64,000 bases of DNA from Bacteroidota bacterium (lineage in GTDB: Bacteria; Bacteroidota; Bacteroidia; UKL13-3): NCBI GenBank assembly GCA_051715425.1, contig JBPXJS010000011.1, positions 132,215 through 196,214 of the forward strand, in the 5' to 3' direction. This document shows, piece by piece, positions 13,779 to 30,895 of the stretch. Both the position numbers and the translations under genes were made by a program. The notes below the pieces were generated by a model. That model saw only the letters and a program-made list of their open reading frames with translations. It had not been told where the DNA came from and ran no database searches. Every line of letters begins with the position of its first letter. Position 1 is the stretch's first letter.

Positions 13779-14074
13779 GTTATGCTAATGGTTGATATTA
13801 ATAGAAAGGTAAAATTAAGGAAATGGGTTTGGGAAACAAAGAGGGATAACCAAAATCAAACCCTTAAACCGATGCAGAAAAGGACGCACCTGAAATTGAA
13901 AACCCATAAGGGATAACTGGAAAAGTCTTTCACCCAAAAAGCAACCGAAACACCCCGAAATATAACCAGATATGCATCCCGCTGCTTAAGCAGGATTCGT
14001 TTAAACCTTATGTGTTGGCGGCAGTTTTGCTTTCACCACGAAGCTGTCTCGGTTCAATTTTGAAGAGATGCTTA

Positions 14075-15259
14075 TTAATAGTAGTATCTAGTTAGTTGGG
14101 TAATTTTGTTGTTGTAAATTACTTTGCTCTCATACAGTAGTCCCTTTAAATTGTAACGGAAATAAGTTTCTGATTTGTTGTTCTTATTGTCAACTGAAAT
14201 TTCAGAAGTCAATTTCTCTTTTTCGTAAGTATAAAAGTAGTTGGTGCATGTTTCTGATGAATTCCTTATGGAGCATTCACTTGTGATTTGGTTTTTGCTA
14301 TTAAACTTTGTAACGATTTTATTTGTGCTGCTTCCAAATCTTGCTTCGGTATTATATATATTTGTTACGACTTTTCCCGAATCAGAATATTCAAATATTG
14401 TTGTAGATTCCCAGTAAGGAAGAATGGTCGTGAAATACCAACCAGTTGAATCAACTTGCTTAATTAAATTTCCGATGTTGTCGTAGTAATAATATTTTTT
14501 GGAATGAACTTTGCCTTCTTTTGTATACCAAATCCATGTTCTCACTTTCCCGTTTTCGTAATAAGTGTAATCATCGTTTAAATATCTTGGGTCACAATAG
14601 ATACACTTAACTGAACCTGTGTCGGGTTTGTAACTGCTGGTTGGTAAATACCTCGTGCTGTCTCTTGTGAAGTAGCGACTAATCTTCTGTCCTTTCTCAT
14701 TGTAATAGGTTTCGTAAATCTCAGCTTTTACTGAACGAAAATGGAAAGTGTCCTTTGTGTATTTTGAAATTGATATGTAGTCATCAAAATATTGAAAGCA
14801 ATCATAAGTTTGGTTTCCTAAGCTGTCATATTTGTATGTTGTAATGTTCTGATAAATGTTGTATCGAAGTGAACCATATTCTTTTCTTTTCTCTATGCCT
14901 AATGGGCTGTCAATGTCAATAACAACCCTTCCGTTTTTGTCATAGTAAGTTTGAAAGGAATACCAGGTCAAATATGAAGGTCCATGTGATTGAAAAACTC
15001 TATTGTATTTCTTGCCTGAAACTTTGCTACTATCTTTATCAAACACCTGTCTGTAAAGAAGTAAACTATCTTTTGAAACTTTGCCGTTCTTTTTTATTTG
15101 ATAGGAGTATGCCTCAATTTTCTTCACATTGTTTTTGATAAAGTCCTGATAAGTCCAACCCTGAAACTCGTCACCACTGAAACTGAAAATGGTATTGCTC
15201 ATTTGTCCGAACAGGTATGTTGTTGTCAGTGTCAATATGCTTGCTAAAATTAATTTCAA
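14075..15259 (-). CDS. MORN-variant repeat protein (YwqK-family antitoxin/immunity-like)
   Basis: 394 aa. Signal peptide, then Tyr-rich repeats of the YYENGKV / YYDKNGRV / YYYDNIGNL type. Confidence 0.5.
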   Translation of the reverse strand: MKLILASILTLTTTYLFGQMSNTIFSFSGDEFQGWTYQDFIKNNVKKIEAYSYQIKKNGKVSKDSLLLYRQVFDKDSSKVSGKKYNRVFQSHGPSYLTWYSFQTYYDKNGRVVIDIDSPLGIEKRKEYGSLRYNIYQNITTYKYDSLGNQTYDCFQYFDDYISISKYTKDTFHFRSVKAEIYETYYNEKGQKISRYFTRDSTRYLPTSSYKPDTGSVKCIYCDPRYLNDDYTYYENGKVRTWIWYTKEGKVHSKKYYYYDNIGNLIKQVDSTGWYFTTILPYWESTTIFEYSDSGKVVTNIYNTEARFGSSTNKIVTKFNSKNQITSECSIRNSSETCTNYFYTYEKEKLTSEISVDNKNNKSETYFRYNLKGLLYESKVIYNNKITQLTRYYY

Positions 15260-15472
15260 TGTCTGTCTGTTTTATGCAGTCCGTTCAGTGTTTGCAGGAC
15301 GCCCAAAAAATTGCAACCAATCGGGTCAGGCCGGGGAATTTCACCCTTACCTTCCAACGGGGGATGACTACGTCCGCGACAACTGGGGCAAGCCAAGTTG
15401 CTTTGTCAAGGTCGTTTTCAGTCGCAAGATTTTTATAATATCGTTTTAGTCCTCTTTGCTTCTTCATTAAAG

Positions 15473-15817
15473 TCAAATTTGATAACTGATTTTCAAAGTA
15501 TCATTTATTTTGTCCGTTAGCATTTCAACTAGTTCTTCATTCATAAATTCATAGTCGTCCGCAATATTTAGAATTTCAATTATTGGCAACTCCAAATGTT
15601 TGTAAAGCCCCCAAATTTTTGCTCGTTGTCCCGGTTCCATTACAAAAACCAAGTCAGCCCAATTCAAATCATTCTCTGATATTTTCCTATCACTTTTTGG
15701 GCTAAGTCCAGCTGAACGAATATTGAAACGATTGTCATTTTTAAAAATGTGTTCCGCTGTCCTGCTACGCTTTTTATTTCGTCCACAAACTACAAGTATG
15801 TTAGGTCTTTCTGTCAT
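15473..15817 (-). CDS. low-molecular-weight protein-tyrosine-phosphatase / ArsC-like family protein
   Basis: CX5R(S) P-loop (VCGRNKKRS) near the N-terminus. Start chosen at MTERPNILVV; the ORF track extends to 15856. Confidence 0.6.
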   Translation of the reverse strand: MTERPNILVVCGRNKKRSRTAEHIFKNDNRFNIRSAGLSPKSDRKISENDLNWADLVFVMEPGQRAKIWGLYKHLELPIIEILNIADDYEFMNEELVEMLTDKINDTLKISYQI

Positions 15818-15979
15818 TGTTGTTGGTCGTCTTAAAATTGGGCATAACGGTGGCAATATGGCCTGAAAGGGATTGCGGAGAACGTCCCTATCAACTTACA
15901 ACGAAATTGATGCGGCTGATGAGCTTCGCATACCACTAAAGCCCTTTTGGGCTATATTGCATGTTGTACACCATTTATT

Positions 15980-16483
15980 TTATACTATTTTTCCTACTTT
16001 CTTTAAATAAATAATCAATCCACCAAGTAAAATGCCTAGGCCAATAAAAAAGTATCCACCATTTTTATCTTTACAACCGCGCATAAAATAGGGTTTCCCA
16101 TCTTTATCAATGAATTGGATCAGTCTATTCAATCTATTATCTGTCTCTTTTGGATCTTCATCAAAATACACAACAATCTCATCTCCAACTTTCAAATCAT
16201 CTATTTTTTCTAAATGTGGTTTAAAATCACCAAAATCCTTTCCAACAAATATTGTAAAAACCTTGGAGTAATTATCAATTAATAAATATCTAAATTTACC
16301 AATATGTCGTAATGGCAATTCTTCGAAAGTCTTATCGAGAAAGACTATCCTACCTGTCAACTGGTTAAATTCAGTTTTATCTTTTGTCCCACGAATCATA
16401 ATAATGGAACCTAAAATCAAGATTGTAATTATACCAGCTATCGATTTTTTAAATATTGGATATTGTCGCTTTGTATTCATCAA
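15980..16483 (-). CDS. hypothetical membrane protein
   Basis: 167 aa with N- and C-terminal TM helices. Confidence 0.45.
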   Translation of the reverse strand: MMNTKRQYPIFKKSIAGIITILILGSIIMIRGTKDKTEFNQLTGRIVFLDKTFEELPLRHIGKFRYLLIDNYSKVFTIFVGKDFGDFKPHLEKIDDLKVGDEIVVYFDEDPKETDNRLNRLIQFIDKDGKPYFMRGCKDKNGGYFFIGLGILLGGLIIYLKKVGKIV

Positions 16484-16787
16484 TCAAATATTTTTCTTAT
16501 TAGTACGCTGAGTTCTTTTTTAAATGGTGTACAACGGCAGACTCCCGCAATCATGCGGGACAAGTTGTGAAATAAGCTATCCACAGCCCTGTATGTAAAT
16601 GTTGGAATAAAACGTCACAAATGCAAGATAAAAAAGCATCACCTTAGATTGAAAACCATAAGAAATAACTGGAAAAGTCTTTCACCTAAAAAAGCAGCCG
16701 AAACTTCCCTGCATGTTGCTGGGCGGGCATCAAACATAGCTCAAATCGAAGTAAAACTTCGTTTGAACCTTATTTGTTGCAGTTTTG

Positions 16788-17558
16788 TTATTCGCCATTA
16801 TCGTCATCATTATATTCGTCAACATTATTTTGGTTTTTGAAACCAATTATTTTTGTCAAGCCATTATTTTTTACGTTGAAAGTCTTAAATTCGATTTTAT
16901 CCAGTTCATTTATTTTTAAATTTAATTGCTCCTTTGTCAAGAGTTTAAGGTTGTAAAGCCAGACCAAATTATTATACAGTTGGTCGTAGGGCAAGTATTC
17001 ATTAAGGGTGGAGTATTTGCCAACTAGATATTTATCGCGTCTTTGTAACAATTCTTTTATAAATTCATCAACACTTTGTTTGTATCGCTTCGTCCCGATA
17101 AATTCTATTGCATTTGTATTATCTGATTGTGTAAGATGAATAGTGTTTTTCTTTGTTATCAGATATACAATTAAAAAAAATACACTTGTTGTTAAGTGAA
17201 ATATTTCAGCGCCATTTCCCACGTGTCCACCATCAAGTCTTTTAAAAAAAACTGAAATAGCAATGATTAGAAATAAAAGGGATATAACTAACCAGAGTAG
17301 CTTTCGTGATTTTTCAATAATAATTTTTGAACCTATGTCTTCAAAATCAACAAAAGTATCAGAGCTTGAAGCTATTCTTTTCTTAATAAGCCTTAATCCA
17401 GTGTCTTCAATTATATATTTGAATCTATCGAAATTTGTGTCAAACTGTTTGAATTCCATATTTGAAGGTGTCATTAAAATTGCAACTAACGTCAGACGGT
17501 GAAATAAACTATCCACAACCTTGTTTGTAAATGTTGCAATAAAACCCCAAAAATGCAA
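16788..17558 (-). CDS. hypothetical membrane protein
   Basis: 256 aa with two central TM helices and an acidic C-terminus. The first ~25 codons overlap repeat D, so the true start may be the internal Met near 17474. Confidence 0.45.
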   Translation of the reverse strand: MHFWGFIATFTNKVVDSLFHRLTLVAILMTPSNMEFKQFDTNFDRFKYIIEDTGLRLIKKRIASSSDTFVDFEDIGSKIIIEKSRKLLWLVISLLFLIIAISVFFKRLDGGHVGNGAEIFHLTTSVFFLIVYLITKKNTIHLTQSDNTNAIEFIGTKRYKQSVDEFIKELLQRRDKYLVGKYSTLNEYLPYDQLYNNLVWLYNLKLLTKEQLNLKINELDKIEFKTFNVKNNGLTKIIGFKNQNNVDEYNDDDNGE

Positions 17559-17647
17559 GTGAAGGCAGGATTAAGTTTCCTGTAATCTCAGATTGAGTTA
17601 AACAAGACAATACTGTAACTTACCCTATCCCACTCTGTTCGAGCATT

Positions 17648-17860
17648 TCACTTTTTATGCAGCTCAACATTTTCAATATCTGCTGTCGTTAAGTGTTCGT
17701 TGTCTAAAAGAATAAGATATGTTGAATTAACAACTCGTCTGTCCGTTAAAACTTGTCCATTTTTAAGGGTAACATTTACTACTTGGTAACCCATACCTTG
17801 TTCAGGTAAATCAGCAAGTTTGTCAATTAAGTTTGTTGGTAATTCAACTTTTTCAGTCAT
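17648..17860 (-). CDS. small 'GMGYQ'-domain protein
   Basis: Start taken at MTEKVELPTNLIDKLADLPEQGMGYQ..., which sits 1 nt after the stop of the upstream paralogous gene. The ORF track gives a longer 17648–17959 ORF. Confidence 0.45.
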   Translation of the reverse strand: MTEKVELPTNLIDKLADLPEQGMGYQVVNVTLKNGQVLTDRRVVNSTYLILLDNEHLTTADIENVELHKK

Positions 17861-17861
17861 A

Positions 17862-18548
17862 CTAATATGGTTTTCGTTCAATGTAAGTTCCATCTGAAGT
17901 TCCGTTGTCAAAAAGTGCTTCAATGCCACCACCGTTATGATTGTTGGCTGGTTGAACAATCCCAGATTTGTATTTGTCGTAAGATTTTGGTTTTACAAAA
18001 AATGCCCACTTAATCGTCTCATCGTTTGGCAATGCATATCTGTCAATAGGGTCATCGTTGTATCTTTTACAAGCGAGATAGTCTGCTTCGGTGGTAGTAT
18101 AAGTTCCATCTTTCAATCTCATTTTCACGAAGTCAATTCTTTTATCGTCAGCATACGCTGAAAGCCGAACAAAAAGGTCTGTCCCGTTTGCATAGATTGG
18201 AGCATTGTCAACAGCACCAGTACCGCCAGAGTGTCTCCCCTTGGTGTTCATATTACTTTCCGACAACATTCGCACATTGCTTAATGCAGAACGTCTTACT
18301 AAAGTTGGGCTTTCCAAAGTAATGAAATCTGATTGGCTGAACATTCTTGTGTAGCTCTCATTAACAATTTGTTTTTTGTATGAGGCAAAATTGCTGTCAT
18401 AGTCAACAATTAGTTCGCTGTTGTAAACAATGAACCTGTCAGTTGTATAACGTCCTTGTCTTTTAGCGTCAATAATTTGGTAACCCATTCCTGACTCAGG
18501 TAATGAGAGAAGCGATTGTGTAAATTGCGATTGTGCTTTAAAAATCAT
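17862..18548 (-). CDS. hypothetical protein with N-terminal 'LPExGMGYQ' domain
   Basis: 228 aa. The N-terminal ~50 aa are paralogous to the downstream small protein (LPESGMGYQIIDAKRQGRYTTDRFIV vs LPEQGMGYQVVNVTLKNGQVLTDRRVV). Confidence 0.55.
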   Translation of the reverse strand: MIFKAQSQFTQSLLSLPESGMGYQIIDAKRQGRYTTDRFIVYNSELIVDYDSNFASYKKQIVNESYTRMFSQSDFITLESPTLVRRSALSNVRMLSESNMNTKGRHSGGTGAVDNAPIYANGTDLFVRLSAYADDKRIDFVKMRLKDGTYTTTEADYLACKRYNDDPIDRYALPNDETIKWAFFVKPKSYDKYKSGIVQPANNHNGGGIEALFDNGTSDGTYIERKPY

Positions 18549-18756
18549 TTTTCTATTTTTTAATTGTTACTAATTTTTTGTCCGTTTTCCTTATTGTGCT
18601 GTGTCGTAGTAGCCTTGCCGCCAACGTCAGACTGTGAAAATACTAAAAAACTAACCCTTTAGAATCGAATATTCGAAAAATCTTCAGATGGGTATCCGAA
18701 TATATCAGCATGGAATTCTAGTTTTTTCACAACCTAACGTTTTGCAGCTACCCGAA

Positions 18757-18870
18757 GGTGGCGATTTCGAAGCACTTCACTGTCAACCAAGCACAAGCTT
18801 TGATAGATGCACAAAGCTTCATTTAACCACTGAACCGCCACTTTTGGGTAGGTGCTGTTATAAGCCGTTT
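18757..18870. repeat. repeat B copy (3'-of-gene module)
   Basis: ggtggcgatttcgaagcac...gcacaaagcttcatttaaccactgaaccgcc. Homologous copies at 22170–22272, 24030–24150, 28001–28125 and 29410–29530. Confidence 0.8.
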
Positions 18871-19830
18871 TTATTTGTTGAATTGTGGGTCGAAATTGTC
18901 ATAAAAATGAGAGCAAATGCCAGATTTGTTTATGATTTTAAGAACTTTCATCATTCTAACATGATGGTCATGGTCGTGGTCATGTTGTCCAAGAGTCATT
19001 TCTTTTTCTGCGTCAACCGACAGAATTGAATGCAACGAATGTGGTGCTGGATGTCCTGGCATATCTCCAAGCCATTTTCCAATCCATTGAATTTCACCAA
19101 CAACATTATTTGCTACTTTCCAATCTTCAATTCTGTCGTCTACCCATCCGTGTAATTTCCAAAAAGTCGGATGAACATGGCTTGAATATGTGTCACCAAG
19201 CCAGTCATAATTTGGGTCGTCCCATTTAGGGTCAATGTTTGTTGAAAATTCGTCTGGGTCAGGTCTGATTTCGTCTATCTGTGAACAAAATCTCATATGC
19301 AACCAGTTGTGAATTGTAAATTCTAGTCTAGCACCCAATTCGCCTAATGACACCGTCTTCAAATAGCCTTTGTCGGTAAATTGAGTTTCTAACGGTTTAA
19401 TCCTTTGATTATAAAAGTCATCTGATTTTACATTTCTCAAATAATCATTTAAACCTTGGTCACCTGTTTCCCAAGTTGGAGGAACAGGATATTCACTATC
19501 ATTAGGAGTAGGAATTGATTTCCATCCTTCAACTTTTGGATAGGTTGCATCTCCAATTTCTCGAAGTCTTTGATTAACACTTGCAATCATAACTCTGTGC
19601 ATATATAAAAAATCTTCCCCCGAGTTGTTAGATACATCTAGTTGTCTCGGATTTGAGTTTCTTACATAAGCAGGTCTTGGCGGCTCCCAACCTAGCTGTC
19701 TAATTTGATTTCTTTCACTGTCGGAATATAGCCACCAGCTATTTCTTACTTGATGCCATAGGTAGTGATGAAGTCTGTGGTCGTGTGACGCCATCATCGT
19801 AATAATATGTCTTGGTAATTTGTTGCTCAT
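18871..19830 (-). CDS. hypothetical His/Trp-rich protein
   Basis: 319 aa with HDHRLHHYLWH and HDHDHDHH motifs. 25 bp downstream of the Fic gene. Confidence 0.55.
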   Translation of the reverse strand: MSNKLPRHIITMMASHDHRLHHYLWHQVRNSWWLYSDSERNQIRQLGWEPPRPAYVRNSNPRQLDVSNNSGEDFLYMHRVMIASVNQRLREIGDATYPKVEGWKSIPTPNDSEYPVPPTWETGDQGLNDYLRNVKSDDFYNQRIKPLETQFTDKGYLKTVSLGELGARLEFTIHNWLHMRFCSQIDEIRPDPDEFSTNIDPKWDDPNYDWLGDTYSSHVHPTFWKLHGWVDDRIEDWKVANNVVGEIQWIGKWLGDMPGHPAPHSLHSILSVDAEKEMTLGQHDHDHDHHVRMMKVLKIINKSGICSHFYDNFDPQFNK

Positions 19831-19854
19831 ATTCTTCTGATTTTTGTAGATTTT

Positions 19855-20955
19855 TTATTCCCTGATAAGTGCTGTGAAAATGTCATTAAGGCTTTTTCCA
19901 TTTCCTTGTCGTGCAGTTTGTAATGCTTTGTAGTATTCTATTCGTTCAATTTTTTCAAATGTAACGTCTTTGTCAAGCAAGTCTTTAAATTGAATTGAAG
20001 CTAAAACTCTTGCTATTCTTCCGTTGCCGTCTAAGAATGGATGTATTGTTAAAAACTTCTCGTGAAATGTTGCAATTGCAGTTATTTTATTGTCATCCGA
20101 ACCATAAGCTACCTTCATAAATTCATTTCTCCACCATTCTAATAATTCAAAAGTTAAAGAAGGAACGTCTGCTGGTGATACTGGAACAAAGTCTGCACTT
20201 TCCTTTTCTTGACCAGGACTACCAATCCAAACATCTAATTTTCTAAAGCCTAAGAGACTATGATATTCTTGCCCTTGGGTTTCCATTAAAATTGTCTTGT
20301 GAAGAACAAGGAGGTCTTCAATTGATAGTCTAGATGAAAATTTCACACCCGCAATAGGTAACGAGGATAATTTAGAATAACCAAAGTCACGCGAATAAAT
20401 TTGTCCTGCGAGCTTATTTGTTACCTTGTTTAATTCTGCAAGTGCATTTTTAATTTCATCGAAGTTTTGCTTTAAGTCGAGATGAGAACTTAAAAAAGAT
20501 ATTTGTTCTGCTTTATTTAGTTCAATACCTAAATATTCTAGTCTTACACCATAGCCTTTGGGGCTGTCAAGAATACCACAAACACTTTCTCCGTGTAGGA
20601 TTACTGTTTTGAATGTTCTATTTTGACAAAGAGTGATTCTTTCACCGGGCGTAATTTTTTGATTTGTAACAAAAACGAAACCTTGAGCATTATTTTTAGT
20701 CACGCCCAAAATGTCTCTTTCAAATTTTTCTTGAATGTCTTTAAACTCCTTTTGTCCATTTGGGAAATAACAGCCAACAACAAATTTTTCTCCTTCTTTA
20801 TAACAGATAATATCTTTTGTTCCATCAGGTCCACCCACAGGACTTTGAGGGTCAATTTCTTGGTAACCTTCAATTCCAATTACTTTAGCAGCCATTCTTT
20901 CCGCAAATGCCTGTCCTTTGTCCCAGTTGATTAATATTTGATATGTATTTGTCAT
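19855..20955 (-). CDS. Fic/DOC family protein
   Basis: Canonical Fic motif HPFLDGNGRIAR in the C-terminal half. ~200-aa N-terminal extension. Confidence 0.85.
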   Translation of the reverse strand: MTNTYQILINWDKGQAFAERMAAKVIGIEGYQEIDPQSPVGGPDGTKDIICYKEGEKFVVGCYFPNGQKEFKDIQEKFERDILGVTKNNAQGFVFVTNQKITPGERITLCQNRTFKTVILHGESVCGILDSPKGYGVRLEYLGIELNKAEQISFLSSHLDLKQNFDEIKNALAELNKVTNKLAGQIYSRDFGYSKLSSLPIAGVKFSSRLSIEDLLVLHKTILMETQGQEYHSLLGFRKLDVWIGSPGQEKESADFVPVSPADVPSLTFELLEWWRNEFMKVAYGSDDNKITAIATFHEKFLTIHPFLDGNGRIARVLASIQFKDLLDKDVTFEKIERIEYYKALQTARQGNGKSLNDIFTALIRE

Positions 20956-21532: not shown

Positions 21533-21548
21533 ATTTAGCTTATTTCTT

Positions 21549-22272: not shown

Positions 22273-22275
22273 ATT

Positions 22276-23994
22276 TTATGCGTCAATTTCTTCATCTGTT
22301 TCTATTGTTACTGGGTCAATTTGCAGTTGATGTTGTTCCCATTCAAGTTGTTTTTGCTTGTCGTTTGAGATAGCTTGTTCAATAGCTAAACTTTCTCTGT
22401 AATGTCGTGCCTCTGCCACCATTGTCCACTTTGCGTTAATGTTCATACTCTCTACTTCCGCTTTAATGTCTGCAAGTGTTACTTTGAAAAATTCTTTTCG
22501 CGGGTTTACTTTATTCATTTGTAGTCGCAGGAATTTCTTGTGTAATTCTCTTTCAAGTCCTGGAGCATTGTCGCTAAATATCATTGAATGGACATCAAAC
22601 TCAAATGGAACGCTCGCATCTCCTAATTCTTTCACTCTGTCAAGAGGTTCAAGTCGTCTTGTCATTCCGATTTTATAAACGTTTTCCCCGAAAGAACCAA
22701 TGTTAGAAATAATATAAACGTTTCCAGATTTTGTCTGTTGTGCCATTGATATTGCTCGTTGATTTTTGTCTTCCGCAATTTTTAATTTTCCTTCAAGTTC
22801 TCTTAATTTTTCTTCGTATTTAGATTTTTGGTCTTCGCTTGCTTGTGCTACTTCTTTTTGAACTTTTTCAATCAGTTTCTTTAAAGTTTCTTCTTCTTTT
22901 TGAGCTTCTTTTATTGCTCTTTCAAAATCTCTTCGGGCTTTTTCTTCTTCTCTGATTTGTTCTTTTATTCTTCTTTGTTCTTCTTGTTCTTCCCATTTTA
23001 ATTCTTGGGCAATAACAGCCCATTTCAATTCGTCTATTCTTGCGTTTAAATATTCTTGTGTTATGATTGCATTACGAAACGCTTTACCATTATTGTTTAC
23101 AACTTGGTAAGCATCTTTAATTTTTTGTTCTAATGTTCCGTAATTGTCTTTTTTTACTTTTGAAAGTATGGAGTCAACTTTACCATTAAATGCGTCAAGG
23201 ATAAAATTGATTGCAGTTTCTTTTCGATTTGCTTCTACATAATCACATTTGGCAGATGTCCCGTTTTTAATCATTAAACGAGTTTTTTCTCTTGAAAATT
23301 TTAATTTTTCTCCTGCTTCCGTATGTCTAAATTCTTCTGCTAAATCGTCAAGTAGACTGTAAGTTGGGATTAAGTATCTGTCGCCATAACCCTCAATAAT
23401 ATTCTTCATTGCCTTTGCAGTTTTTTCTAGTTCAGTTGCATTTTGCATTGCTTTGTATGCATCACCTGCAATTTCTTGTGCTTTCTTGTCTGCTCGTTCA
23501 ATAATTAGTTTAGCTTCTTTCGTAGCATTGTCTAATTGTGCAACTGCATTTTGTTTAAATGCAGTTGCATCAATATTTGCTTGTGTCTTAATTGTATTTG
23601 CTGAAATAGAAGCTTGGTCAAGTTCTTTCTGTGCTTGCAATTTTAGTTCATTGGCTTCTGAAGTTGCAGTGTCGAGTTGTTGTTTAGCGTTATCAATAAT
23701 TGAGTTTGCATTTTTTTCTGCATCTGAAAGAATTTCCTTTGCTTTCAGTTCTGTGTCAACAATACCTTGATATTTATTTAATGCTGCATTTTTTTGTTCA
23801 AGGTCTGAAACTTGCCCAATTAGAACAATACTATTTTGTTTTAGGTCTGTAAGTTGGTCGGATAAATTTTTTCTTTCCTTTTCATTAAAAGCCAAACTGT
23901 TTGTCAAGTCGTTAATAATAGTTTGTAGTTTCTTGCGGTTTGTAAGCCAAAGAATAGCTAAAATGATTATTACTATAATTAAAATTGCAGTCAT
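22276..23994 (-). CDS. DUF4041 domain protein with C-terminal T5orf172 (GIY-YIG-like) domain
   Basis: 572 aa. N-terminal TM helix, long coiled-coil, then GNVYIISNIGSFGENVYKIGMTRRLEPLDRVKELGDASVPFEFDVH, characteristic of T5orf172/MUG113. Confidence 0.75.
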   Translation of the reverse strand: MTAILIIVIIILAILWLTNRKKLQTIINDLTNSLAFNEKERKNLSDQLTDLKQNSIVLIGQVSDLEQKNAALNKYQGIVDTELKAKEILSDAEKNANSIIDNAKQQLDTATSEANELKLQAQKELDQASISANTIKTQANIDATAFKQNAVAQLDNATKEAKLIIERADKKAQEIAGDAYKAMQNATELEKTAKAMKNIIEGYGDRYLIPTYSLLDDLAEEFRHTEAGEKLKFSREKTRLMIKNGTSAKCDYVEANRKETAINFILDAFNGKVDSILSKVKKDNYGTLEQKIKDAYQVVNNNGKAFRNAIITQEYLNARIDELKWAVIAQELKWEEQEEQRRIKEQIREEEKARRDFERAIKEAQKEEETLKKLIEKVQKEVAQASEDQKSKYEEKLRELEGKLKIAEDKNQRAISMAQQTKSGNVYIISNIGSFGENVYKIGMTRRLEPLDRVKELGDASVPFEFDVHSMIFSDNAPGLERELHKKFLRLQMNKVNPRKEFFKVTLADIKAEVESMNINAKWTMVAEARHYRESLAIEQAISNDKQKQLEWEQHQLQIDPVTIETDEEIDA

Positions 23995-24029
23995 ATTCTG
24001 AGATGTTTCGTTATGTTTCCTGTTGAGTT

Positions 24030-24150
24030 TTGCAGTCTGCTACTATGCAACTTTTATTTTAATGAGGTGGTGATTTCGGAACGCCATACTTGATACGAAG
24101 TAAAATGCTCATTTAAACACTGCACTGGCTATTTCTTCTGTCTATAAGAT
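24030..24150. repeat. repeat B copy
   Basis: ggtgatttcggaacgccatacttgatacgaagtaaaatgctcatttaaacactgcactggc. Confidence 0.75.
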
Positions 24151-24163
24151 TTTGAGTTGTAAT

Positions 24164-25180
24164 TTACACTGTTAGGTTTATTTTGTGCCGTTTCCCGTTT
24201 AGTAAAAAGTCAATTTGTATTTTGTTGTGAAGTATAATTTCAAGATGTCCAAAGTCAAACTCTTTATGATGATTTGGACAAAGTAAAATTATGTTCTCAG
24301 GTGTTTCTCGTCCTTTTAAGTATTTGGCTTTTATGTGTGCAGCTTCAATATACTTGCTTCCGTTTTTTTTCATTATTGTAGTAGAACAAATTTGGCATTT
24401 AAAGTCCCGGAGAATTTTTATTTGTGTTATTGTTTTGTTGTCGCGTTTATATCTTTTGTGATTGACAATAATTTCTTCAGGGTCGTTGTCCTTTAGATTC
24501 TTTAGGTCTTTTAGAATGTCTGCCTTTGATTTATTCTTTTTGAAGTATATTTCAAGTTCGATTTGTTCCTTTTCGTCATTTGAAACAAAGGTCAATTGAA
24601 ACTTTTTACCTGTATAGTATTCATAAATAGATAAAAGTTTCTTAAAATCTATTTCGTTTGTTCCAACTTTCGATAATTCAGTTAATTCGTCAAAAAGTAT
24701 ATGTTCAGCGAATTTATCATCTTTATAGGTGAAACCAATTTGCCCAACCATTCTTTCACTTGAATTGTCTTTGTAATTGTTCGCGTCAAGTGGTAAAGGA
24801 AATAAAATTGAAAAATCCCTTTCGGCCTTGATGTTTGCCCAATAAGCATTCTTTTGAAATGCAGTCGGAAGTTTTCTTGCTTCATTAAACGTTTCCGCTT
24901 TGCCATATACTCCAACAATTTGTCCTTTGTTTTCGTCAGTGTTCCTTGTGTAAAATATTATGAGTCCGCCCTTTTCGAATTTCACTGGAGCATTTTTCCA
25001 TTTAACGAAACCGTTTATAAACTTTTCGGTGTCAACTGCTTTTTTGTTGAAGTTGAAATTTAATGATTCACCACCAACATTGTCTTGAGCGTATTTATGC
25101 CCTGCTTTAGGATTTATATAGCTGTTGTTTCTCCAACCAAATGGATTCCAAGTAATGTTTGCGATTATTATTTTACTCAT
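24164..25180 (-). CDS. HNH endonuclease with N-terminal PUA/EVE-like domain (putative modification-dependent restriction enzyme)
   Basis: C-terminal HNH (CQIC...AHIKAK...LLCPNHHKEFDFGH). N-terminal beta-barrel-like signature GGLIIFYTRN...GQIVGVYGKAE resembling EVE/PUA. Confidence 0.6.
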   Translation of the reverse strand: MSKIIIANITWNPFGWRNNSYINPKAGHKYAQDNVGGESLNFNFNKKAVDTEKFINGFVKWKNAPVKFEKGGLIIFYTRNTDENKGQIVGVYGKAETFNEARKLPTAFQKNAYWANIKAERDFSILFPLPLDANNYKDNSSERMVGQIGFTYKDDKFAEHILFDELTELSKVGTNEIDFKKLLSIYEYYTGKKFQLTFVSNDEKEQIELEIYFKKNKSKADILKDLKNLKDNDPEEIIVNHKRYKRDNKTITQIKILRDFKCQICSTTIMKKNGSKYIEAAHIKAKYLKGRETPENIILLCPNHHKEFDFGHLEIILHNKIQIDFLLNGKRHKINLTV

Positions 25181-25184
25181 TTCG

Positions 25185-26378
25185 TTAATTTTGTGTTGCT
25201 ACAATAGTTAATGTTGTTCGCTGGAGTTTTGCCAAATCGTTCATTGTTTGAGTAAATACTGTACGTGCATGTTCATAATTGTAGTTACACAACAAAAGAA
25301 TAACGGGACCTTTTCCTTGCCATATCTCAGAGTACTGTGAAACCTGTCCTTTTGCTCGTTGAATTGCTCCCGCACTTGAATCTCTTTTCATCTCTATCAA
25401 AATGGTGTCATTCACTACAATATCTGCTCGTCCTCTGCCTGCCTTATCAGCAATAGGGTACTCTAATTCAATTGATGCACCTGGCAAATGCTTTTTCAAA
25501 TGGCGGTATAACCTGTCTTGATACTCGTACTCGTAGTATGCTCCTTTGGGATGCCAATTTTGTAAAGCAATCACAAAGTCATTAAAGAGGTTTGAATTGC
25601 TTTTTGCAATAACAGCACTTACTTGTTCCTCTTGTTTTGCATTAATGACTAATTCACTTTCCACTTGAGTTTGGATAGTTGCAGCTTGGTTAGTGTATTT
25701 TGAATCCGCTTTATTTTTATAATCAAAAAGTTGTCGCAGTTCTGATTTGATTCGTATAAATATCTGTTGATCTCTTTTGTAGAGATAAAATAAGATTGCT
25801 ACACCAAACAGAATAGCAACCCAGTAGTAGTGGTTTGTAAATCTTTCGAACTCACGGAAAGATGAAAGTCGTATGTTGAACAAATTTTCAATCGGCTTGC
25901 GAACAAAAACAGATAAATTTTGAAACGCTTTCCAACTGATACCACCAACAAATAAAACTCGTCCAATTTTGTAGATGTTCTCATTTTGTCCGTTTTTCTT
26001 GGTTACTTCAATTTCATCTTTCATTATTTCGTAGTAAGTTAATAATCTAGATTTTGCTCTTTCCCAAGTCCAGTTGCCTTTGTCGTCACGCCATGAACCT
26101 ATAAAAGCAAGAACAATTACTAAGGTGAAAAGGAGAAAGATTAATGTTGAATAGTAGGTCAGTCGATCAGAGTCAACACCGAGTAGCTCGTCAAGAAGCG
26201 GTGCAATTATTAAAACCCATACGCTACCCCAAATAGAAAATTTTATACGTTTGCCATAAAGTTTACGATCTATGTTATCAACTGTATCAAATAGTTTAGT
26301 AACGGCAGTCTGAGTCTGCACTAAGGTTAAGTTTAAATAATCTTTAGCCCCTTTTTGTTGTTCGGTCATATTGTCCAT
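25185..26378 (-). CDS. membrane-anchored protein with C-terminal PD-(D/E)xK (Mrr-like) nuclease domain
   Basis: 397 aa with 3–4 TM helices in the N-terminal half. C-terminal ...RADIVVNDTILIEMKRD... (D...E-x-K). Ends 5 bp before the EVE–HNH gene. Confidence 0.5.
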   Translation of the reverse strand: MDNMTEQQKGAKDYLNLTLVQTQTAVTKLFDTVDNIDRKLYGKRIKFSIWGSVWVLIIAPLLDELLGVDSDRLTYYSTLIFLLFTLVIVLAFIGSWRDDKGNWTWERAKSRLLTYYEIMKDEIEVTKKNGQNENIYKIGRVLFVGGISWKAFQNLSVFVRKPIENLFNIRLSSFREFERFTNHYYWVAILFGVAILFYLYKRDQQIFIRIKSELRQLFDYKNKADSKYTNQAATIQTQVESELVINAKQEEQVSAVIAKSNSNLFNDFVIALQNWHPKGAYYEYEYQDRLYRHLKKHLPGASIELEYPIADKAGRGRADIVVNDTILIEMKRDSSAGAIQRAKGQVSQYSEIWQGKGPVILLLCNYNYEHARTVFTQTMNDLAKLQRTTLTIVATQN

Positions 26379-26552
26379 TTTAAAATTGTTTATTTGAGCT
26401 TGTTGTATGATGTAAGCACAGCAGTCAATGCTTTCATTATAGCTTGAGGTCTTTCAACACTGAAGTTTTGTTTATAATGGTTTGCCTGAAAGGCGCTGAC
26501 CCAGCTGTAGCGAATTACTTCCTTAAGATGGTTTACATTGCTCAGTCATTTG

Positions 26553-27581
26553 TCAGCCAGTTATTTTTTTTAACTCGTCCACCAATAGTTTACTTTCCAT
26601 TTTAGATAGATAAGGTGTCTTTAAGGTTCTTGCCCAAAAGAATCCGTGCTCCAATAATTCTGTCACTTTGTAGAATGGCAGATAGTTTGTAATTCCATTT
26701 TCTTTGCTTGGGGGTTTTGTAAGCCATTTAACACTAACAAAACCTTCGTCATCGTCTAAGTCCTCATTGTATTCTTCTTTAGTATTAGTGAGCACTTCAC
26801 CTGCAGCGATAATTCCATGATGTTTATGAGAAAGGAAAACAATGTCCCCCTTTTTTAAATAGTAAGCAAAGTATGCTTGTCCTCCATAGGCTGAAGCTCT
26901 TTTTTTATTAAGCATATCCCATACACAGTCTTCGTTGTAAGTTCTATTTGTATCTAGGATTACGCCTTTTTGTTGGTTTGGATTAATGTGTGTATCGTGA
27001 GGTTTCGCGAAGAATTCAAAGTATAATTCATTACCAAGACTATAAATCCTATAAGGAATGAACTCAACTGAAAGTCCTTTAGTTTTCCAATATGTCAAAG
27101 ATTTTGCTAACGTCTCGTTAGCGGCACTTCCAACAACATAAAGATGTTGGTTTCTGTTAAACTCTGCTGGAGTTAATGCCCTGTCAAGTTGGAAGTCCTC
27201 TTTGTGAGCATCCAAAAGCTCCTTTTCAGGATTTTGTTTTTTGAAATAGTAATTTAATTTGTCATAACCCCATTGCCCAGCGGTTTGTGTATAACGTAAA
27301 ATTTGAACCATAGCATCGTCACCAACTACACCACGCTTTAATTCAAAAATTACAAGGTCTCCCTTTTCTGTAACTGCATAGATGTCCGCTTCGCCTTGAA
27401 AACTTCTTTCTTGGTGGATTGGCATTAATGCGTTGTCTTCGAAAAGTTTATTCAATAAATTATTAGCAAGTAGATTTTCTAGATCCTTTTCGATTTTGCT
27501 TAACTGGGAAAAGTCGTAAAACGGCAGTGGCTCCAGCCCGTTAGGGGTATTGTTGTTTTCAAGTGATAATTTGTATAGCAT
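26553..27581 (-). CDS. PD-(D/E)xK nuclease fused to C-terminal EVE domain (putative type IV restriction endonuclease)
   Basis: N-terminal GEADIYAV...GDLVIFELKRG (D...ExK). C-terminal KKGDIVFLSHKHHGIIAAGEV matches the EVE GDLVFFYHS...GIVGIAEV core. Confidence 0.6.
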   Translation of the reverse strand: MLYKLSLENNNTPNGLEPLPFYDFSQLSKIEKDLENLLANNLLNKLFEDNALMPIHQERSFQGEADIYAVTEKGDLVIFELKRGVVGDDAMVQILRYTQTAGQWGYDKLNYYFKKQNPEKELLDAHKEDFQLDRALTPAEFNRNQHLYVVGSAANETLAKSLTYWKTKGLSVEFIPYRIYSLGNELYFEFFAKPHDTHINPNQQKGVILDTNRTYNEDCVWDMLNKKRASAYGGQAYFAYYLKKGDIVFLSHKHHGIIAAGEVLTNTKEEYNEDLDDDEGFVSVKWLTKPPSKENGITNYLPFYKVTELLEHGFFWARTLKTPYLSKMESKLLVDELKKITG

Positions 27582-27679
27582 AGTGTTTTTGTCTTTAAGT
27601 TGCTAAAAACTAGTTATATATTCTCCACATATACACCTTTCCTTTATCCGCCTGCATAGATTTACATCAGGATCCAGTT

Positions 27680-27990
27680 ACCTCCACAAACCTCCCCAAC
27701 CCTCCCATCAAAATCAAGAGTGAAAACACTCTTTTTTCATAGGGAAAACATTCTCTTTTTTGGAGTGCCTAACGGGCGTTTGGCGGCTGTAAGCCATGTA
27801 TTTATTAGCAAATAGGGCAAAATGGTGGTAAATGGCCAATTTTTTTTCTGAAACCCCGGTTTTAGTTTGTGAAAGGGGAGAATGGGTTTGTTAAGGTGAA
27901 AATTAGAGGAAAATATGGTGGTGCTTTTAAGGGATCAGGGAGCATAAAAGATCTGTTTATATGCCGGTATTAGTTGTCAGAGCTCAACGT
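27680..27990. repeat. repeat A copy 2
   Basis: About 88–90% identical to 21800–22100 by inspection. Immediately upstream (5') of gene 26553–27581. Confidence 0.85.
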
Positions 27991-28000
27991 TTCTGGGGTT

Positions 28001-28125
28001 TAATAAGTTGGCAATTTCGGAGACAAAAACTGTCTGCCAGTAATAGACTTGATACTAAGCACAAAGCTTCATTTAAGTACTGAGCCCGCTTTTTTGCCTA
28101 ACCCGTGTTAGCTGCTTGTGCTTCT
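28001..28125. repeat. repeat B copy
   Basis: ggcaatttcggagacaaaaactgtctgccag...ctaagcacaaagcttcatttaagtactgagcccgc...agctgcttgtgcttctgtc. Confidence 0.8.
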
Positions 28126-28131
28126 GTCACG

Positions 28132-29043
28132 TTAAAAGAATTGGAGGAATGTGGTACTAAACTTTACTGTTATCGTTCCACCGTATTCCACTTTATTAAA
28201 GTCATCTGTGCCTGCGGTTCTAATGCTCATAAAAGGGGTAACTCCAATCTTTCCATTGGGATTGTCTTTGACTAGTGGATAAAAAAACACCCAGCTTTCA
28301 AGTCGTAATCTATTCAAATTGTCAAACGGATTGTTAGTGCCTTTTTTGCCAGTGAAGTCATAATATACTGTTGGTGAATAACTAAAACTACCTTTTCCTG
28401 AATAGATTTGTAATGAGAAAGCAGGTGAGAATGTTGGTTTGACACTTGGTGCATCTATTGTCATGTTGATAGTAGTAACCACTCCGTTACTATTTGGAGG
28501 GTTCACAACTCCAACCTCATTTGCCGCTTTCCAATCGTATGAATACCTTAGTCTAAATTGAGGAGAAAATTGTTTAGCCTCATTCGCACCTTTTGTGAAG
28601 AAACCAATATATTTTAATTCGAATGCGTATGAACTCTCAGTATTTTTAAGTTCGTTTGTTTTTGAACCTGAGGGATAATATTTAAACTCACTTGAGCCAT
28701 ATTCAAATTGTGCTCCTATGGAATGTCTTGCAATTCCACCAGTCTCAGCAGTATTGTCTTTGGTGTATTGAATAGCAAGTATGCCCCGCCAAGTAGATGA
28801 AAACCTATCTAATTGTAAAACATTGTCGGACTTTGATGTCAATGGCATCCTTACTGTTGGTCTTAAAATAAATGTATTTCCTTTCTCAACCTTTTCCCAG
28901 TTGAGTTCGGGTCCAGCTTCAATTTGTCCATCTTTTATTGAAGTTGTTCCATTAATGAATGGAAGTATTTTGAATTTTGTGTCTTGAGCAAATCCAATTG
29001 TTGGCAGAAGCATTAAAATGCTATAAACTAATTTCAGTTTCAT
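28132..29043 (-). CDS. putative outer-membrane beta-barrel protein
   Basis: 303 aa. Signal peptide (…IGFAQ), alternating amphipathic beta-strand pattern, C-terminal aromatic residue (…LQFF). Confidence 0.55.
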   Translation of the reverse strand: MKLKLVYSILMLLPTIGFAQDTKFKILPFINGTTSIKDGQIEAGPELNWEKVEKGNTFILRPTVRMPLTSKSDNVLQLDRFSSTWRGILAIQYTKDNTAETGGIARHSIGAQFEYGSSEFKYYPSGSKTNELKNTESSYAFELKYIGFFTKGANEAKQFSPQFRLRYSYDWKAANEVGVVNPPNSNGVVTTINMTIDAPSVKPTFSPAFSLQIYSGKGSFSYSPTVYYDFTGKKGTNNPFDNLNRLRLESWVFFYPLVKDNPNGKIGVTPFMSIRTAGTDDFNKVEYGGTITVKFSTTFLQFF

Positions 29044-29335
29044 AATATCCTCCTTGTAGTTTTAAAGTTAAACTTTGGTCGTCTGCCGTTCCTGGCAAGT
29101 CAATACCAAATTTGAAAGAAGCGTTGTCAATTCCAACGACCCTAATTTTTAAGCGAACTTGTGCATCAGGAATTTTTCCTGTCCAAGTTCTTTTCTTTGT
29201 TCCGTCTGATTGAATTACCTTAACTCCATTTACAAATGCATAAAACATAGTCAGACTACCAGTAACTGGTTCAAGTGTCAATGTAAAGTCTCTTGTAGCT
29301 TCCATTGAGAGTGTAACATTTTTTTTCTTCGCCAT
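29021..29335 (-). CDS. hypothetical protein
   Basis: 104 aa. 23-bp overlap with the downstream OM protein gene. Confidence 0.45.
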   Translation of the reverse strand: MAKKKNVTLSMEATRDFTLTLEPVTGSLTMFYAFVNGVKVIQSDGTKKRTWTGKIPDAQVRLKIRVVGIDNASFKFGIDLPGTADDQSLTLKLQGGYYETEISL

Positions 29336-29409
29336 TTTATTATTTGTTTAAATAGTTTTTATGAGGTTTGATAGCATAGCAGCTAACGGTTTGCAACTAC
29401 AAGAAGTTG

Positions 29410-29530
29410 GTGATTCCGGAGCACAAAACTGTCTACCAGCACCAAGCTTGTTACGAAGTACAATACTTCATTTAACCACTGACCCGTGAATTTCTTGTAG
29501 GTGCTTTTAGCTGTAGTGCTTCTTCTCATT
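29410..29530. repeat. repeat B copy
   Basis: ggtgattccggagcacaaaactgtctaccag...ttacGAAGTAcaaTACTTCatttaaccactgacccgtg...agctgtagtgcttcttctc. Confidence 0.8.
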
Positions 29531-29541
29531 GTCGACTAAGT

Positions 29542-29781
29542 TTAGTTTTTAGCAAGAGTAACCTTTACTTTGTCAATAATGGTTTGCTTTTTGTCGCCAG
29601 CCGATATTCTTTTTACCATTACTATAAAACTGTCAACTTCTGTTTGGAACTTTTCTGCTGAAACACTAACTCGCTTTAAGATGGCATCTCTGTTAGTATT
29701 AGTCCAAGGCATTTGAGATTGAAGTTCCCAAATGTCGTCTGTGGCAAGCTCTTTAGAATTGTTGTTGTAACCCAAAGCCAT
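29542..29781 (-). CDS. hypothetical protein (possibly a 3' fragment of an interrupted gene)
   Basis: 79 aa. An upstream in-frame 18-codon ORF (ATG 29928) ends at a TAG and the frame then continues into this ORF. Confidence 0.35.
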   Translation of the reverse strand: MALGYNNNSKELATDDIWELQSQMPWTNTNRDAILKRVSVSAEKFQTEVDSFIVMVKRISAGDKKQTIIDKVKVTLAKN

Positions 29782-29929
29782 AATGTCGCTAAGAAAACTA
29801 TCAATAGCCTCAAACTTTGCAACACCTCTTTCCTTAATATCTGTGTCGTTAAGTTTTGATGAAATGCTGTCCTAAATTAACTCTTTAACAGTAGTTTCAA
29901 CTTCTTGTCTTTCTTGTTGTGAAATCATT

Positions 29930-30544
29930 TTATCTTATTTTTCGTTTGTGATTAGTTCCTGTCAACTTGCTTAATTTTGATATGGATGTTTCCAAATGCT
30001 TTTTTAGGATTCTTTTTAGTTCTTTTATTTCTTCAATGTCATTCACATTATTAAGTGATATTATTTCATCAAAATTTATTCCGTGTCTATATGTCCTCGC
30101 TGAAATTGGACCTTGTATTAAAAAGAGGAATTGACAATATGGAAAAATGGTTTTTATCATTTCTGCTTTTTGAGAATAGGTCAGAATTTCATGTGTGTTA
30201 GGCTGTCCTTTTTTAACTTCAAGTATTACAAATGGAAGTCCAACATGGTGTGAATTTTGTCCACTATCTTTTTCGAGTATTACATCAATAATTGTGTGTT
30301 CTTCTTTAGAAATTCGGCTGTCTTTTTGCTTTACTGTTTTGTCAAATAGAACTTTATAAATAGTAATATCTTGTTTGAAACACCATAATTCAAGTTTTGT
30401 GTTATTGTCTGTCGGGATATAGATGTGTTTGTAGGGAACCGGAACCTCCGTGCCAATTTGATACGGAAATTTTACAACGTCTTTAAGTTGCTCAATTAGT
30501 CTATCTCTAAGTTCTGTTTCTGTCAAATGTTGTGTTGTCGTCAT
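29930..30544 (-). CDS. hypothetical protein with PD-(D/E)xK-like motif
   Basis: 204 aa. ...HHVGLPFVILEVKKGQ... resembles a restriction-endonuclease-fold E-x-K motif. Confidence 0.45.
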   Translation of the reverse strand: MTTTQHLTETELRDRLIEQLKDVVKFPYQIGTEVPVPYKHIYIPTDNNTKLELWCFKQDITIYKVLFDKTVKQKDSRISKEEHTIIDVILEKDSGQNSHHVGLPFVILEVKKGQPNTHEILTYSQKAEMIKTIFPYCQFLFLIQGPISARTYRHGINFDEIISLNNVNDIEEIKELKRILKKHLETSISKLSKLTGTNHKRKIR

Positions 30545-30734
30545 ACGTTATTTTTAGCAATATTGATTTTATTTTGCACCGTCACCATAGCATTACAGCC
30601 AACTCATAAATATAAGCAACACATAATTTTGTATCTTTACATATTCACTAAGTTACCTATTGTACTTTTTAATATTTATTTCTCTTCATAAATTGAACAA
30701 ACCTTTATAACCGTTTCTGACAATTCATACCTGT

Positions 30735-30895
30735 TTGCAAACACAATACAAACCTCCCCAACCCTCCCATCAAAATCAAGAGTGAAAACACTCTTTTTTC
30801 ATAGGGAAAACATTCTTTTTTTTTACAGAGCCTAACAAGCGTTTGATGGCTGTAAGCATTGATTTTATTAGAAAGCAGGGCAAAATGGGAGCAAA
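30735..30895. repeat. repeat A copy 3 (truncated)
   Basis: The first ~160 bp match the other copies (caaacctccccaaccctcccatcaaaatcaagagtgaaaacactc...) and then diverge. Confidence 0.8.

Follow-up and report, generated by a model that had tools for sequence, protein, structure and literature searches.

In integrons, the bases that follow G/TT at the start of a gene cassette (a slash marks the junction here and below) pair with the R'' core of the cassette's own attC site, because the cassette is a circle that was opened at that point. Canonical attC sites have R and L boxes that are set apart on each arm by an unpaired spacer of about 5 nt, together with extrahelical bases and a variable centre. 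Among the related arrangements, the Vibrio cholerae repeats (VCRs) show a similarity that is confined to one genus, and pdif modules have 28-bp dif-like sites at their boundaries, each inverted relative to the one before. Surveys of the Bacteroidetes with IntegronFinder have recovered In0 elements and a single complete integron (Salinibacter) alone, and the near-absence of integrons from this phylum has been treated as a puzzle of incompatibility with some genetic backgrounds (PMC9024848). Papers on antibiotic resistance in Flavobacteriaceae mention 'xerD' as a neighbour of tet(X), catB and aadS on conjugative elements (PMC7494873, PMC7473080, PMC11194056), one of them stating that no integrons were found. 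Here, we describe an array of intergenic repeats in a Bacteroidota bacterium (GenBank assembly GCA_051715425.1, contig JBPXJS010000011.1, forward-strand positions 132,215 to 196,214). The whole stretch of 64,000 nucleotides that was analysed is referred to as the window, and positions are counted from its first letter unless another locus is named. We assign a probability of about 0.8 to the reading that the window carries a partly decayed cassette array of an integron-like system of the Bacteroidota, similar to the clusters of attC sites lacking an integron integrase (CALINs), with no recombinase gene nearby.

A first-pass annotation of the window had reported four families of intergenic repeats, A to D, and had suggested an array of the integron or CALIN type, perhaps with an undescribed site system. 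By repeat search, self-BLAST and nhmmer, all four families proved real, at or near the positions given and far above chance. They are not the equivalent modules that had been supposed, however, given that A, C and D have no counterpart in related loci and are local duplications; only B among the four is more than this. Family B itself had been drawn too short, at ~100-120 bp, whereas the repeat was found to extend over ~145 nt. The canonical attC cores, which had not been found in B by eye, were overlooked because they fall outside the narrower coordinates, and they are present once B is extended (R'' RYYYAAC, as in AGCAGCTAAC; R' GTTRRRY, as in GTTAGCTGCT, GTTGAGC or GTTAGGT). On the minus strand, the intact copies of the window start with ...AGCTAAC and end with GTTAGCT, GTTGAGC or GTTAGGT, with a long imperfect hairpin between. 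A 25-nt pattern for the B core has four exact matches in the window, compared with 0.05 expected, and six B-type sites lie within 14 kb, three of them intact, two truncated and one very diverged. By analogy, such a cluster would qualify as a CALIN, i.e., at least two clustered attC sites with no integrase nearby. A fifth family, E, was absent from the first-pass annotation; its two copies in the window are 74% identical, end exactly at a cassette boundary and are attI-like. The suggestion of an integron-type array was upheld for B and E, but not for A, C and D.

The decisive evidence, in our view, comes from the variable bases of the cores. For adjacent B sites, we took the seven variable bases that precede AAC in site n and compared them with the seven that follow GTT in site n-1, read as their complement. 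Over 89 adjacent pairs, R''(n) and R'(n-1) matched at 5.73/7 positions, compared with 3.11 for the site's own R' and 2.93 at random, and at least six of the seven bases matched in 66 of these pairs. The integron trait of a cassette start complementary to the cassette's own R'' is thus present in B arrays. Within the window, the intergenic DNA of the island that holds the array contained five exact 10-mer pairs, among them 29387/28116, 20988/18866, 18625/14023 and 16535/15972, compared with 0.22 in shuffles, none of 2000 shuffles reaching five. Exact intergenic matches with a shuffle control were used in place of a one-mismatch scan for GTT.../...AAC pairs, which was too noisy and strand-symmetric. 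Because the start that follows GTT is complementary to R'' of the cassette's own hairpin, the cassette can be read as a circle cut open at GTT, and the R''(n)/R'(n-1) complementarity is, as far as sequence can tell, the signature of circular cassettes joined at GTT.

Family B is widespread. In the genome collection searched, its core pattern was found at 119 loci at least, compared with about 2 by chance, as estimated from the information content of the pattern and the size of the collection. The hosts include Flavobacterium, Pedobacter, Hymenobacter, Cyclobacteriaceae, Saprospiraceae, Chitinophagales, Bacteroidales, Crocinitomicaceae and Ignavibacteria. The best-preserved copy of the window, B1, shares 80-99% identity with copies from other orders, reaching 99% with a copy in Lunatimonas (L034) and 96% with three copies in Pedobacter glucosidilyticus (L033). 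An nhmmer profile of B found 241 copies. In multi-copy loci, all B copies were co-oriented (63/63) and mostly spaced 600-3000 bp apart, with usually one or two ORFs per interval, of which 166 were co-oriented and 5 opposite. The median gap between the stop codon and B was 6 nt, and that between B and the next ATG ~50 nt. Different loci had almost wholly unrelated cargo.

Alignment of 129 diverse copies showed that the 5' TAACA and 3' CGTTA are nearly invariant and that the G of GTT is invariant. Each site opens at its 5' end with the core nnnnnnTAAC (R''). Next come a covarying stem of ~20 bp in which some mismatches are fixed (alignment columns 37/153 and 47/143), a conserved centre of ~80 nt and a 5-nt spacer (AAAAC), and the site ends in the 3' core, GTTAnnnnnn (R'). 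Spacer length is 1 nt in the 5' arm and 5 nt in the 3' arm. For a stem of 17 pairs, 90% of cells were paired, compared with 64% in column shuffles (0/500 reaching the observed value) and 29-41% in slid-partner controls, and double-sided changes numbered 537, compared with 186 in shuffles. In 120 of the 129 copies, columns 47/143 form A.C on the top strand and thus G.T on the other, and the bottom strand was the more stable in 95 copies.

Some individual occurrences of B deserve separate mention. The Lunatimonas salinarum contig L034 (NZ_JACVCV010000088.1) is only 861 bp long, has ~576x assembly coverage and is probably a collapsed multi-copy element of its genome. B contigs also occur in metagenome-assembled genomes (MAGs) labelled Limnohabitans and Bifidobacterium (L027, L062 and L099); these labels are most likely binning errors rather than a sign of spread beyond the Bacteroidota. 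An association of B with phages was rejected, given a single match in a viral collection of 2.9 million contigs. The one contig concerned (L120:5911-6052, IMGVR_UViG_3300037294_000660; nhmmer E=4.5e-43) may be a misclassified fragment of a chromosome or of an integrative and conjugative element.

Clustering of the ORFs in related loci yielded one recurrent family, a tyrosine recombinase, which was present in 13 loci chosen through B. The recombinase gene precedes the arrays, in most cases pointing the same way as the cassettes. Its product has Phage_int_SAM_4 and Phage_integrase domains and scores best on NF040815 ('XerA/integron integrase'). On the integron-integrase model TIGR02249, the array-linked recombinases reach 188-219 bits, compared with a cut-off of 265, and match in two pieces. 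Relative to VchIntIA (2a3v), the recombinase lacks the IntI-specific insertion, because 30 residues stand where IntI has 72, and the closest solved relative is archaeal XerA (5hxy, E=1e-42). An integrase with the IntI-specific additional domain was found neither in the window nor among the B-linked recombinases, and the term sedentary integron, which had been offered for the locus, is inapplicable in its strict sense since the associated recombinase is without the defining insertion. The N-terminus carries a W..W.P module of ~45 aa (…R/KI.v.F…..i..ik.l.ga.WS..lk.WH.Pd), as a single copy in proteins of ~350 aa and in triplicate in the longer ones of 528-558 aa (seen at L010:2223-3899, L067:1299-2885 and residues 1-50 of P0105). 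This module gave no Pfam match beyond a faint one to DUF5710, and is a candidate binder of the conserved B centre or of the attI-like arms.

The recombinase family comprises at least 7995 proteins at E<=1e-30, which databases name 'XerD' or 'site-specific tyrosine recombinase/integron integrase'. Four members looked up by identity (P0105, P0052, P0028 and P0007) all had an attI-like motif and co-oriented B arrays downstream, and in a Flavobacterium terrisoli locus nine B copies lie within 8 kb. In several loci, the start of the first cassette (GTTAnnnn, complementary to R'' of the first B) lies about 60-180 nt past the recombinase stop codon. It is preceded by the attI-like motif, which consists of an inverted repeat and then GCGnATATnnAnnA/GTT. 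The motif of family E is common to the post-recombinase sites of L083, L033, L112, L201-L205, L207, L208 and L210. The end of the first window copy, E1 (TTGCGTATATTTATGA/GTTATAAGCC), is almost identical to the L083 site that follows the recombinase (ACTTGCGTATATTTATGA/GTTATAGCC), the last 22 nt across the junction being identical, and on this account we take E to be an attI-like array head. The integron trait of an attI site beside the integrase gene thus has its counterpart in complete elements; the window has the motif, present twice, without the gene.

Cassette turnover, which the first-pass annotation had named as the behaviour to look for, was seen on comparing genomes whose recombinases are identical. 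The recombinase concerned, P0105, recurs unchanged in many Flavobacteriales genomes, its surroundings (relaxase, MobC, ParA and TraG) being those of a conjugative element. We compared six loci (L201-L206) from assemblies GCA_050703515.1, GCA_014220145.1, GCA_015476565.1, GCA_900108395.1, GCA_018860145.1 and GCA_014220225.1. The B-bounded cassettes that follow P0105 encode Tet(X) (862 bits), Erm(F) (615), AadS (519) and CatB (393), and further P0105-linked cassettes encode a class D beta-lactamase (OXA), a Sul-family dihydropteroate synthase, a CHM-like B1 metallo-beta-lactamase and an AAC(3)-I-like acetyltransferase. The order and content of the resistance cassettes differ in each genome. In L201, L202 and L204, the attI-like sequence is identical but the first cassette after it is not the same; L201 has the cassettes of L203 and, at the attI-like site, one more that carries erm(F), and L202 is without two cassettes that are present in L203. 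The turnover junctions lie at GTT, with a complementarity of 10-11/12. Comparison of these sequences thus shows cassettes joined at GTT, new ones appearing at the attI-like site, and an order and presence that vary behind the same recombinase. Within their own cassettes, erm(F) and catB are inverted in these loci.

Taken together, the data suggest the following model. A cassette would consist of one or a few co-oriented genes and the ~145-nt imperfect hairpin B, the equivalent of attC. A complete element would have a XerA-like tyrosine recombinase upstream, followed by an attI-like site and then by the cassettes. Cutting would be done by the neighbouring recombinase, and the site would recombine in folded form, mainly as a bottom-strand hairpin, as attC does. 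A wider claim is that Bacteroidota and some Ignavibacteria possess an unrecognised, phylum-wide analogue of integrons (XerA-like recombinase with a novel N-terminal domain, attI-like site and B sites), which builds both chromosomal arrays of ORFan and defence genes and the conjugative clusters of tet(X), erm(F), aadS, catB, blaOXA and metallo-beta-lactamase genes; for this claim we see the balance as even. Were it true, a recombinase without the IntI insertion would imply that cassette capture arose here either independently or in a deeply diverged lineage. A literature search, the coverage of which did not extend to subscription journals, found no account of either the B sites or the system, and we consider it about as likely as not that the system is truly undescribed.

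Of the other explanations, the closest is an ordinary integron remnant, i.e., a CALIN in which B is a canonical attC site served by a true IntI encoded elsewhere. The AAC...GTT cores, one-directional arrays, cassette-circle rule and attI-like head fit integron logic, as do the 188-219 bits of the recombinases on TIGR02249 and their NCBI name, 'site-specific tyrosine recombinase/integron integrase'. However, every recombinase that adjoins B falls below the 265-bit cut-off with its two-piece match, the IntI-specific insertion is missing (30 vs 72 residues) and the best solved relative is archaeal XerA. The spacers of 1 and 5 nt, rather than about 5 and 5, the ~20-bp stem, the sequence-conserved centre and the usual co-orientation of the recombinase gene with the cassettes also argue otherwise, and surveys with IntegronFinder have found the Bacteroidetes to be essentially free of integrons (PMC9024848), so that we regard a canonical integron remnant as unlikely. 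The Xer-like sequence of the recombinase, called 'XerD' in the resistance literature (PMC7473080, PMC11194056), would suit Xer/dif-type modules, like pdif of Acinetobacter plasmids, moved by the housekeeping XerC/XerD. Yet the arrays are linked to a dedicated recombinase gene with an extra N-terminal domain. Moreover, where pdif has alternating inverted 28-bp sites, these arrays have direct 145-nt hairpins with AAC/GTT cores, and we judge mobilization by housekeeping enzymes to be very improbable. 

The high copy number of B, its strong conservation in distant genomes and the 861-bp Lunatimonas contig at about 576x coverage could point to a selfish element, similar to miniature inverted-repeat transposable elements (MITEs) or repetitive extragenic palindromes (REPs), or to the end of an insertion sequence, that spreads alone and accumulates at hot-spots which we see as arrays. 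A MITE with terminal inverted repeats is ruled out because R''(n) matches R'(n-1), while the match to the site's own R' is at random level (3.1/7, with complementarity only at TAAC/GTTA). Selfish spread in general is scarcely credible given that orientation is never mixed (63/63 loci), that B always lies just past a stop codon and that 2.9 million viral contigs gave 1 match. The position directly after stop codons and the stable hairpin would also be those of a conserved RNA element of 3' untranslated regions (terminator, stabiliser or small RNA), the families then being promoter or terminator modules that were duplicated by ordinary means, with no site-specific recombination. Consistent with this, A holds an intrinsic-terminator-like hairpin, and A, C and D are local duplications. 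Such an element would nevertheless leave unexplained both the variable R''(n)/R'(n-1) match and the swaps of whole cassettes at GTT behind an identical recombinase and attI-like site; in addition, Rfam gave no match at E<=1 in 11000-31700, and B has no T run after its stem. We therefore judge an RNA element to be very unlikely. Several points also weigh against the cassette-array reading that we prefer. No tyrosine recombinase ORF was found in the 64-kb window, and the array is therefore either a CALIN-like relic or dependent on an enzyme encoded elsewhere. Just three B-type sites out of six are intact, the distal half (18722 to 11609) gives overlapping or nested core matches and no clean unique parse, and A, C and D, which were found nowhere else, are left unexplained by the model. 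Finally, the strand asymmetry is modest, at about 2 kcal/mol, and the pairing of recombinase and site, the exact crossover within CGTTA and single-strand folding are all inferred from sequence.

The features of the array are collected in Table 1, in minus-strand order from the head. In E2, GTTGGCTGTA is largely complementary to R'' of B5 (TACAGCTAAA). B5, the hairpin of which folds at -20 to -21 kcal/mol, closes a cassette with genes for 204-aa and 79-aa proteins, and B4, the R'' of which (AGCAGCTAAC) is exactly complementary to R' of B5 (GTTAGCTGCT), closes one with 104-aa and 303-aa genes. A2 is followed by genes for 342-aa (PDC-S11-like), 397-aa and 338-aa (HNH) proteins and then by the decayed B3. 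B2, with a 3' half that is diverged down to about 22110, comes after a 572-aa PD-Lambda-1 gene (22276-23994; PADLOC E=7e-114). After A1 come a small ORF, a 107-aa gene and the second head, E1. In the A1 cassette, the 107-aa gene is closely preceded by a small proline-rich ORF (MSKKAPSPNPNFPSKNPGQPSGPGRGNNPPKTTPTKPIVPSPSPKKK; 21575-21683, minus strand). B2 and A1 together are 81% identical to B4 and A2 over 477 bp and are an old, diverged duplicate of them. The first 60 nt of E1 are a fragment of the A tail (21185-21126), and its GTTATAAGCC is exactly complementary to R'' of B1 (GGCTTATAAC). B1, with a bottom-strand fold of -25.2 kcal/mol, closes a cassette with a Fic/SoFic gene (19855-20955) and a 319-aa gene. 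The cargo of the array thus includes the anti-phage genes PD-Lambda-1 and SoFic-like.

Table 1. Positions in the window of the repeats of the array, of the island that contains it and of the island's boundary blocks
Feature	Position	Strand	Cores, matches and remarks
A3, 3' half of family A at array head	30748..30916	-	88% identity to A1, 83% to A2
E2, attI-like array head	30601..30800	-	junction GTT at 30603-30601 (…GCTTATATTTATGA/GTTGGCTGTA)
B5, intact attC-like site	29379..29524	-	R'' ACAGCTAAA; R' GTTAGCTGCT (29387-29378); nhmmer E=3e-35
B4, intact attC-like site	27976..28125	-	R'' AGCAGCTAAC (28116-28107); R' GTTGAGCTCT (27988-27979); E=7e-30
A2, full copy of family A	27680..27986	-	begins at R' of B4
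B3, decayed, central part of B alone	24065..24139	-	nhmmer E=3e-6, HMM 28-121, internal deletion
B2, 5' 89 nt of B	22174..22262	-	R'' AGCAGCTAAC; nhmmer E=8e-18, HMM 3-91
A1, full copy of family A	21791..22115	-	self-BLAST, nhmmer, alignment
E1, second attI-like head, mid-array	20986..21185	-	…TTGCGTATATTTATGA/GTTATAAGCC; GTT at 20988-20986
B1, best-preserved attC-like site	18722..18875	-	R'' GGCTTATAAC (18866-18857); R' GTTAGGTTGT (18739-18730); nhmmer E=2e-43
D2 and junction motif TTTCACCGTCTGAC/GTTAGTTGCA	17487..17559	-	12 nt upstream of likely ATG at 17474
C2, candidate attC, second private type	16632..16797	-	DNA fold z=-2.4
D1 and short hairpin site CACAAC-(GTCCCGCATGATTGCGGGAG)-GTTGTACACC	16526..16627	-	fold z=-2.6 to -3.1
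B6-like, very diverged B-type hairpin	15830..15972	-	R'' GGTGTACAAC; weak nhmmer match E=0.008; stem read from sequence
C1, candidate attC, private type	13878..14038	-	R'' TGCCGCCAAC
Island	11609..30980	-	low-GC array; relatives without island at this site
Left boundary repeat block	10366..11608	.	inverted copy of right block (10457-10879) and tandem units
Right boundary repeat block	30981..31596	.	between msrB and array head

The distal part of the array runs, in minus-strand order, through D2, C2, D1, the short hairpin site, the B-like site and C1 to a GNAT gene. The junction motif of D2 recurs at 18640-18623, and R'' of C2 (AAACTGCAAC) matches GTTGCAATTT at 17486 in 9/10 positions. GTTGTACACC at 16535 is exactly complementary to GGTGTACAAC at 15972, in the B6-like site that comes after a 167-aa gene, and R'' of C1 (TGCCGCCAAC) is exactly complementary to GTTGGCGGCA at 18625-18616. 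A cassette protein similar to LMWPc (ATG-start ORF 15473-15817, minus strand) is homologous to one encoded at L073:1501-1899, a Flavobacteriales MAG locus that also has B, and represents cargo common to distant arrays.

As for the other families, the two copies of C are 71% identical and those of D (16627-16567 and 17559-17499) 87%. Searches of the related loci (119 to about 200) with nhmmer found no copies of A, C, D or E, and the invariant block of A had no match in a metagenome collection. A, C and D are thus local duplications that are private to the source genome and lie at cassette boundaries. C may be a second type of attC, given that its 5' cores follow the complementarity rule. The three long copies of A share an identical 70-nt block holding a hairpin that is terminator-like on both strands, and A also has a B-like 3' end, AGCCGCCAAAC-nnnn-GTTAGGCAC. 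The idea that A and D carry promoters gained no support; a sigma-70 scan, itself ill-suited to Bacteroidota, was at background with 55 matches compared with 57.5 expected, and the invariant block of A is the terminator-like hairpin. A was likewise rejected as a small gene, because its frames are broken between copies and a 77-aa ORF in A1 is not kept in A2. The invariant tail of A (21800-21830, 27680-27710 and 30748-30775, minus strand) has G-tracts (GGGAGGGTTGGGGAGG) on the coding strand right after the terminator-like hairpin, which form a possible G-quadruplex tract.

The island has a GC content of 0.32-0.38, compared with 0.40-0.45 in its flanks, and every ORF from about 11609 to 30980 is encoded on the minus strand. 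Relatives were found with the same flanking genes, i.e., those for tkt, an FAD protein, a type IX secretion system (T9SS) endonuclease and msrB; the closest of these metagenome relatives are only ~54% identical in a flanking protein and hence share synteny without being close strains. In two such loci (L123 and L137), the SDF symporter gene lies only 25-62 nt past msrB. Because syntenic relatives have the symporter gene directly after msrB, the 21.2 kb from 10366 to 31596 are an insertion between these two genes. Inverted repeats bracket it (10457-10879 vs 31426-30981, 72% identity over 462 bp by self-BLAST), and no transposase was found in the bracketed 21-kb insertion. The left block contains a 112-bp unit in 4.2 tandem copies (11142-11607), which occurs once at 30983-31069, and directly adjoins the stop codon of the last cassette gene, GNAT (11609-12148), which has no attC. 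The flanking 699-aa endonuclease I protein has a C-terminal Por_Secre_tail (T9SS) sorting domain. A scan of the window with Rfam 15 at gathering scores found two tRNAs alone. At 62623-62761, 62982-63140 and 63233-63455, there are more copies of the boundary-type repeat just downstream of tRNA-Ser and tRNA-Pro, along with a direct repeat of 140-160 bp that overlaps the 3' part of tRNA-Pro; these look like a dispersed repeat family of the source genome.

If the model is true, a platform with the same logic, but with another recombinase and another site, would fill the integron gap in the Bacteroidetes, and would be a second, independent example of tyrosine recombinases that evolved to use folded DNA sites. 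It would also account, to the base pair, for the shuffling of tet(X), erm(F), aadS, catB, OXA and B1 metallo-beta-lactamase genes on the conjugative elements of Flavobacteriales. The B model opens cassette mining in a phylum in which current tools report almost nothing, and it makes the odd repeats of the window interpretable, as a decayed array of defence-gene cassettes between msrB and the symporter gene.

Compared with MITE and REP elements, B is likewise short, structured, multi-copy intergenic DNA, but it differs in its uniform orientation, its fixed position after stop codons, its lack of inverted repeats at its own ends and the absence of random dispersal. The catalytic domain of the B-linked recombinase is most like XerA. 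Unlike XerA, or XerC/XerD acting at dif, however, this recombinase is not the product of a single chromosomal gene for dimer resolution but is linked to cassette arrays and conjugative elements, and B sites are not 28-bp dif sites. With the VCRs, B shares the length of a long attC-type site (about 120-145 nt) and a high similarity within an array, although the similarity of B spans Flavobacteriales, Sphingobacteriales, Cytophagales, Chitinophagales, Bacteroidales and Ignavibacteria. With integrons in general, the system has in common a promoter-proximal tyrosine recombinase gene with an adjoining primary insertion site, one-directional arrays of mostly single-gene and mostly ORFan cassettes, an imperfect hairpin with ...AAC and GTT... 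cores at the end of each cassette, the logic of circles inserted at a head site, cargo of defence and resistance genes and, as in the window, remnants without a recombinase. It differs from them in a recombinase that lacks the IntI insertion, is nearest to archaeal XerA and has one to three N-terminal W..W.P copies, the gene for which is usually co-oriented with the cassettes; in a site of ~145 nt with spacers of 1 and 5 nt and a ~20-bp stem; in a ~80-nt centre that is 80-99% conserved across orders, whereas the centres of canonical attC sites are variable; and in a host phylum that has been reported as nearly devoid of integrons.

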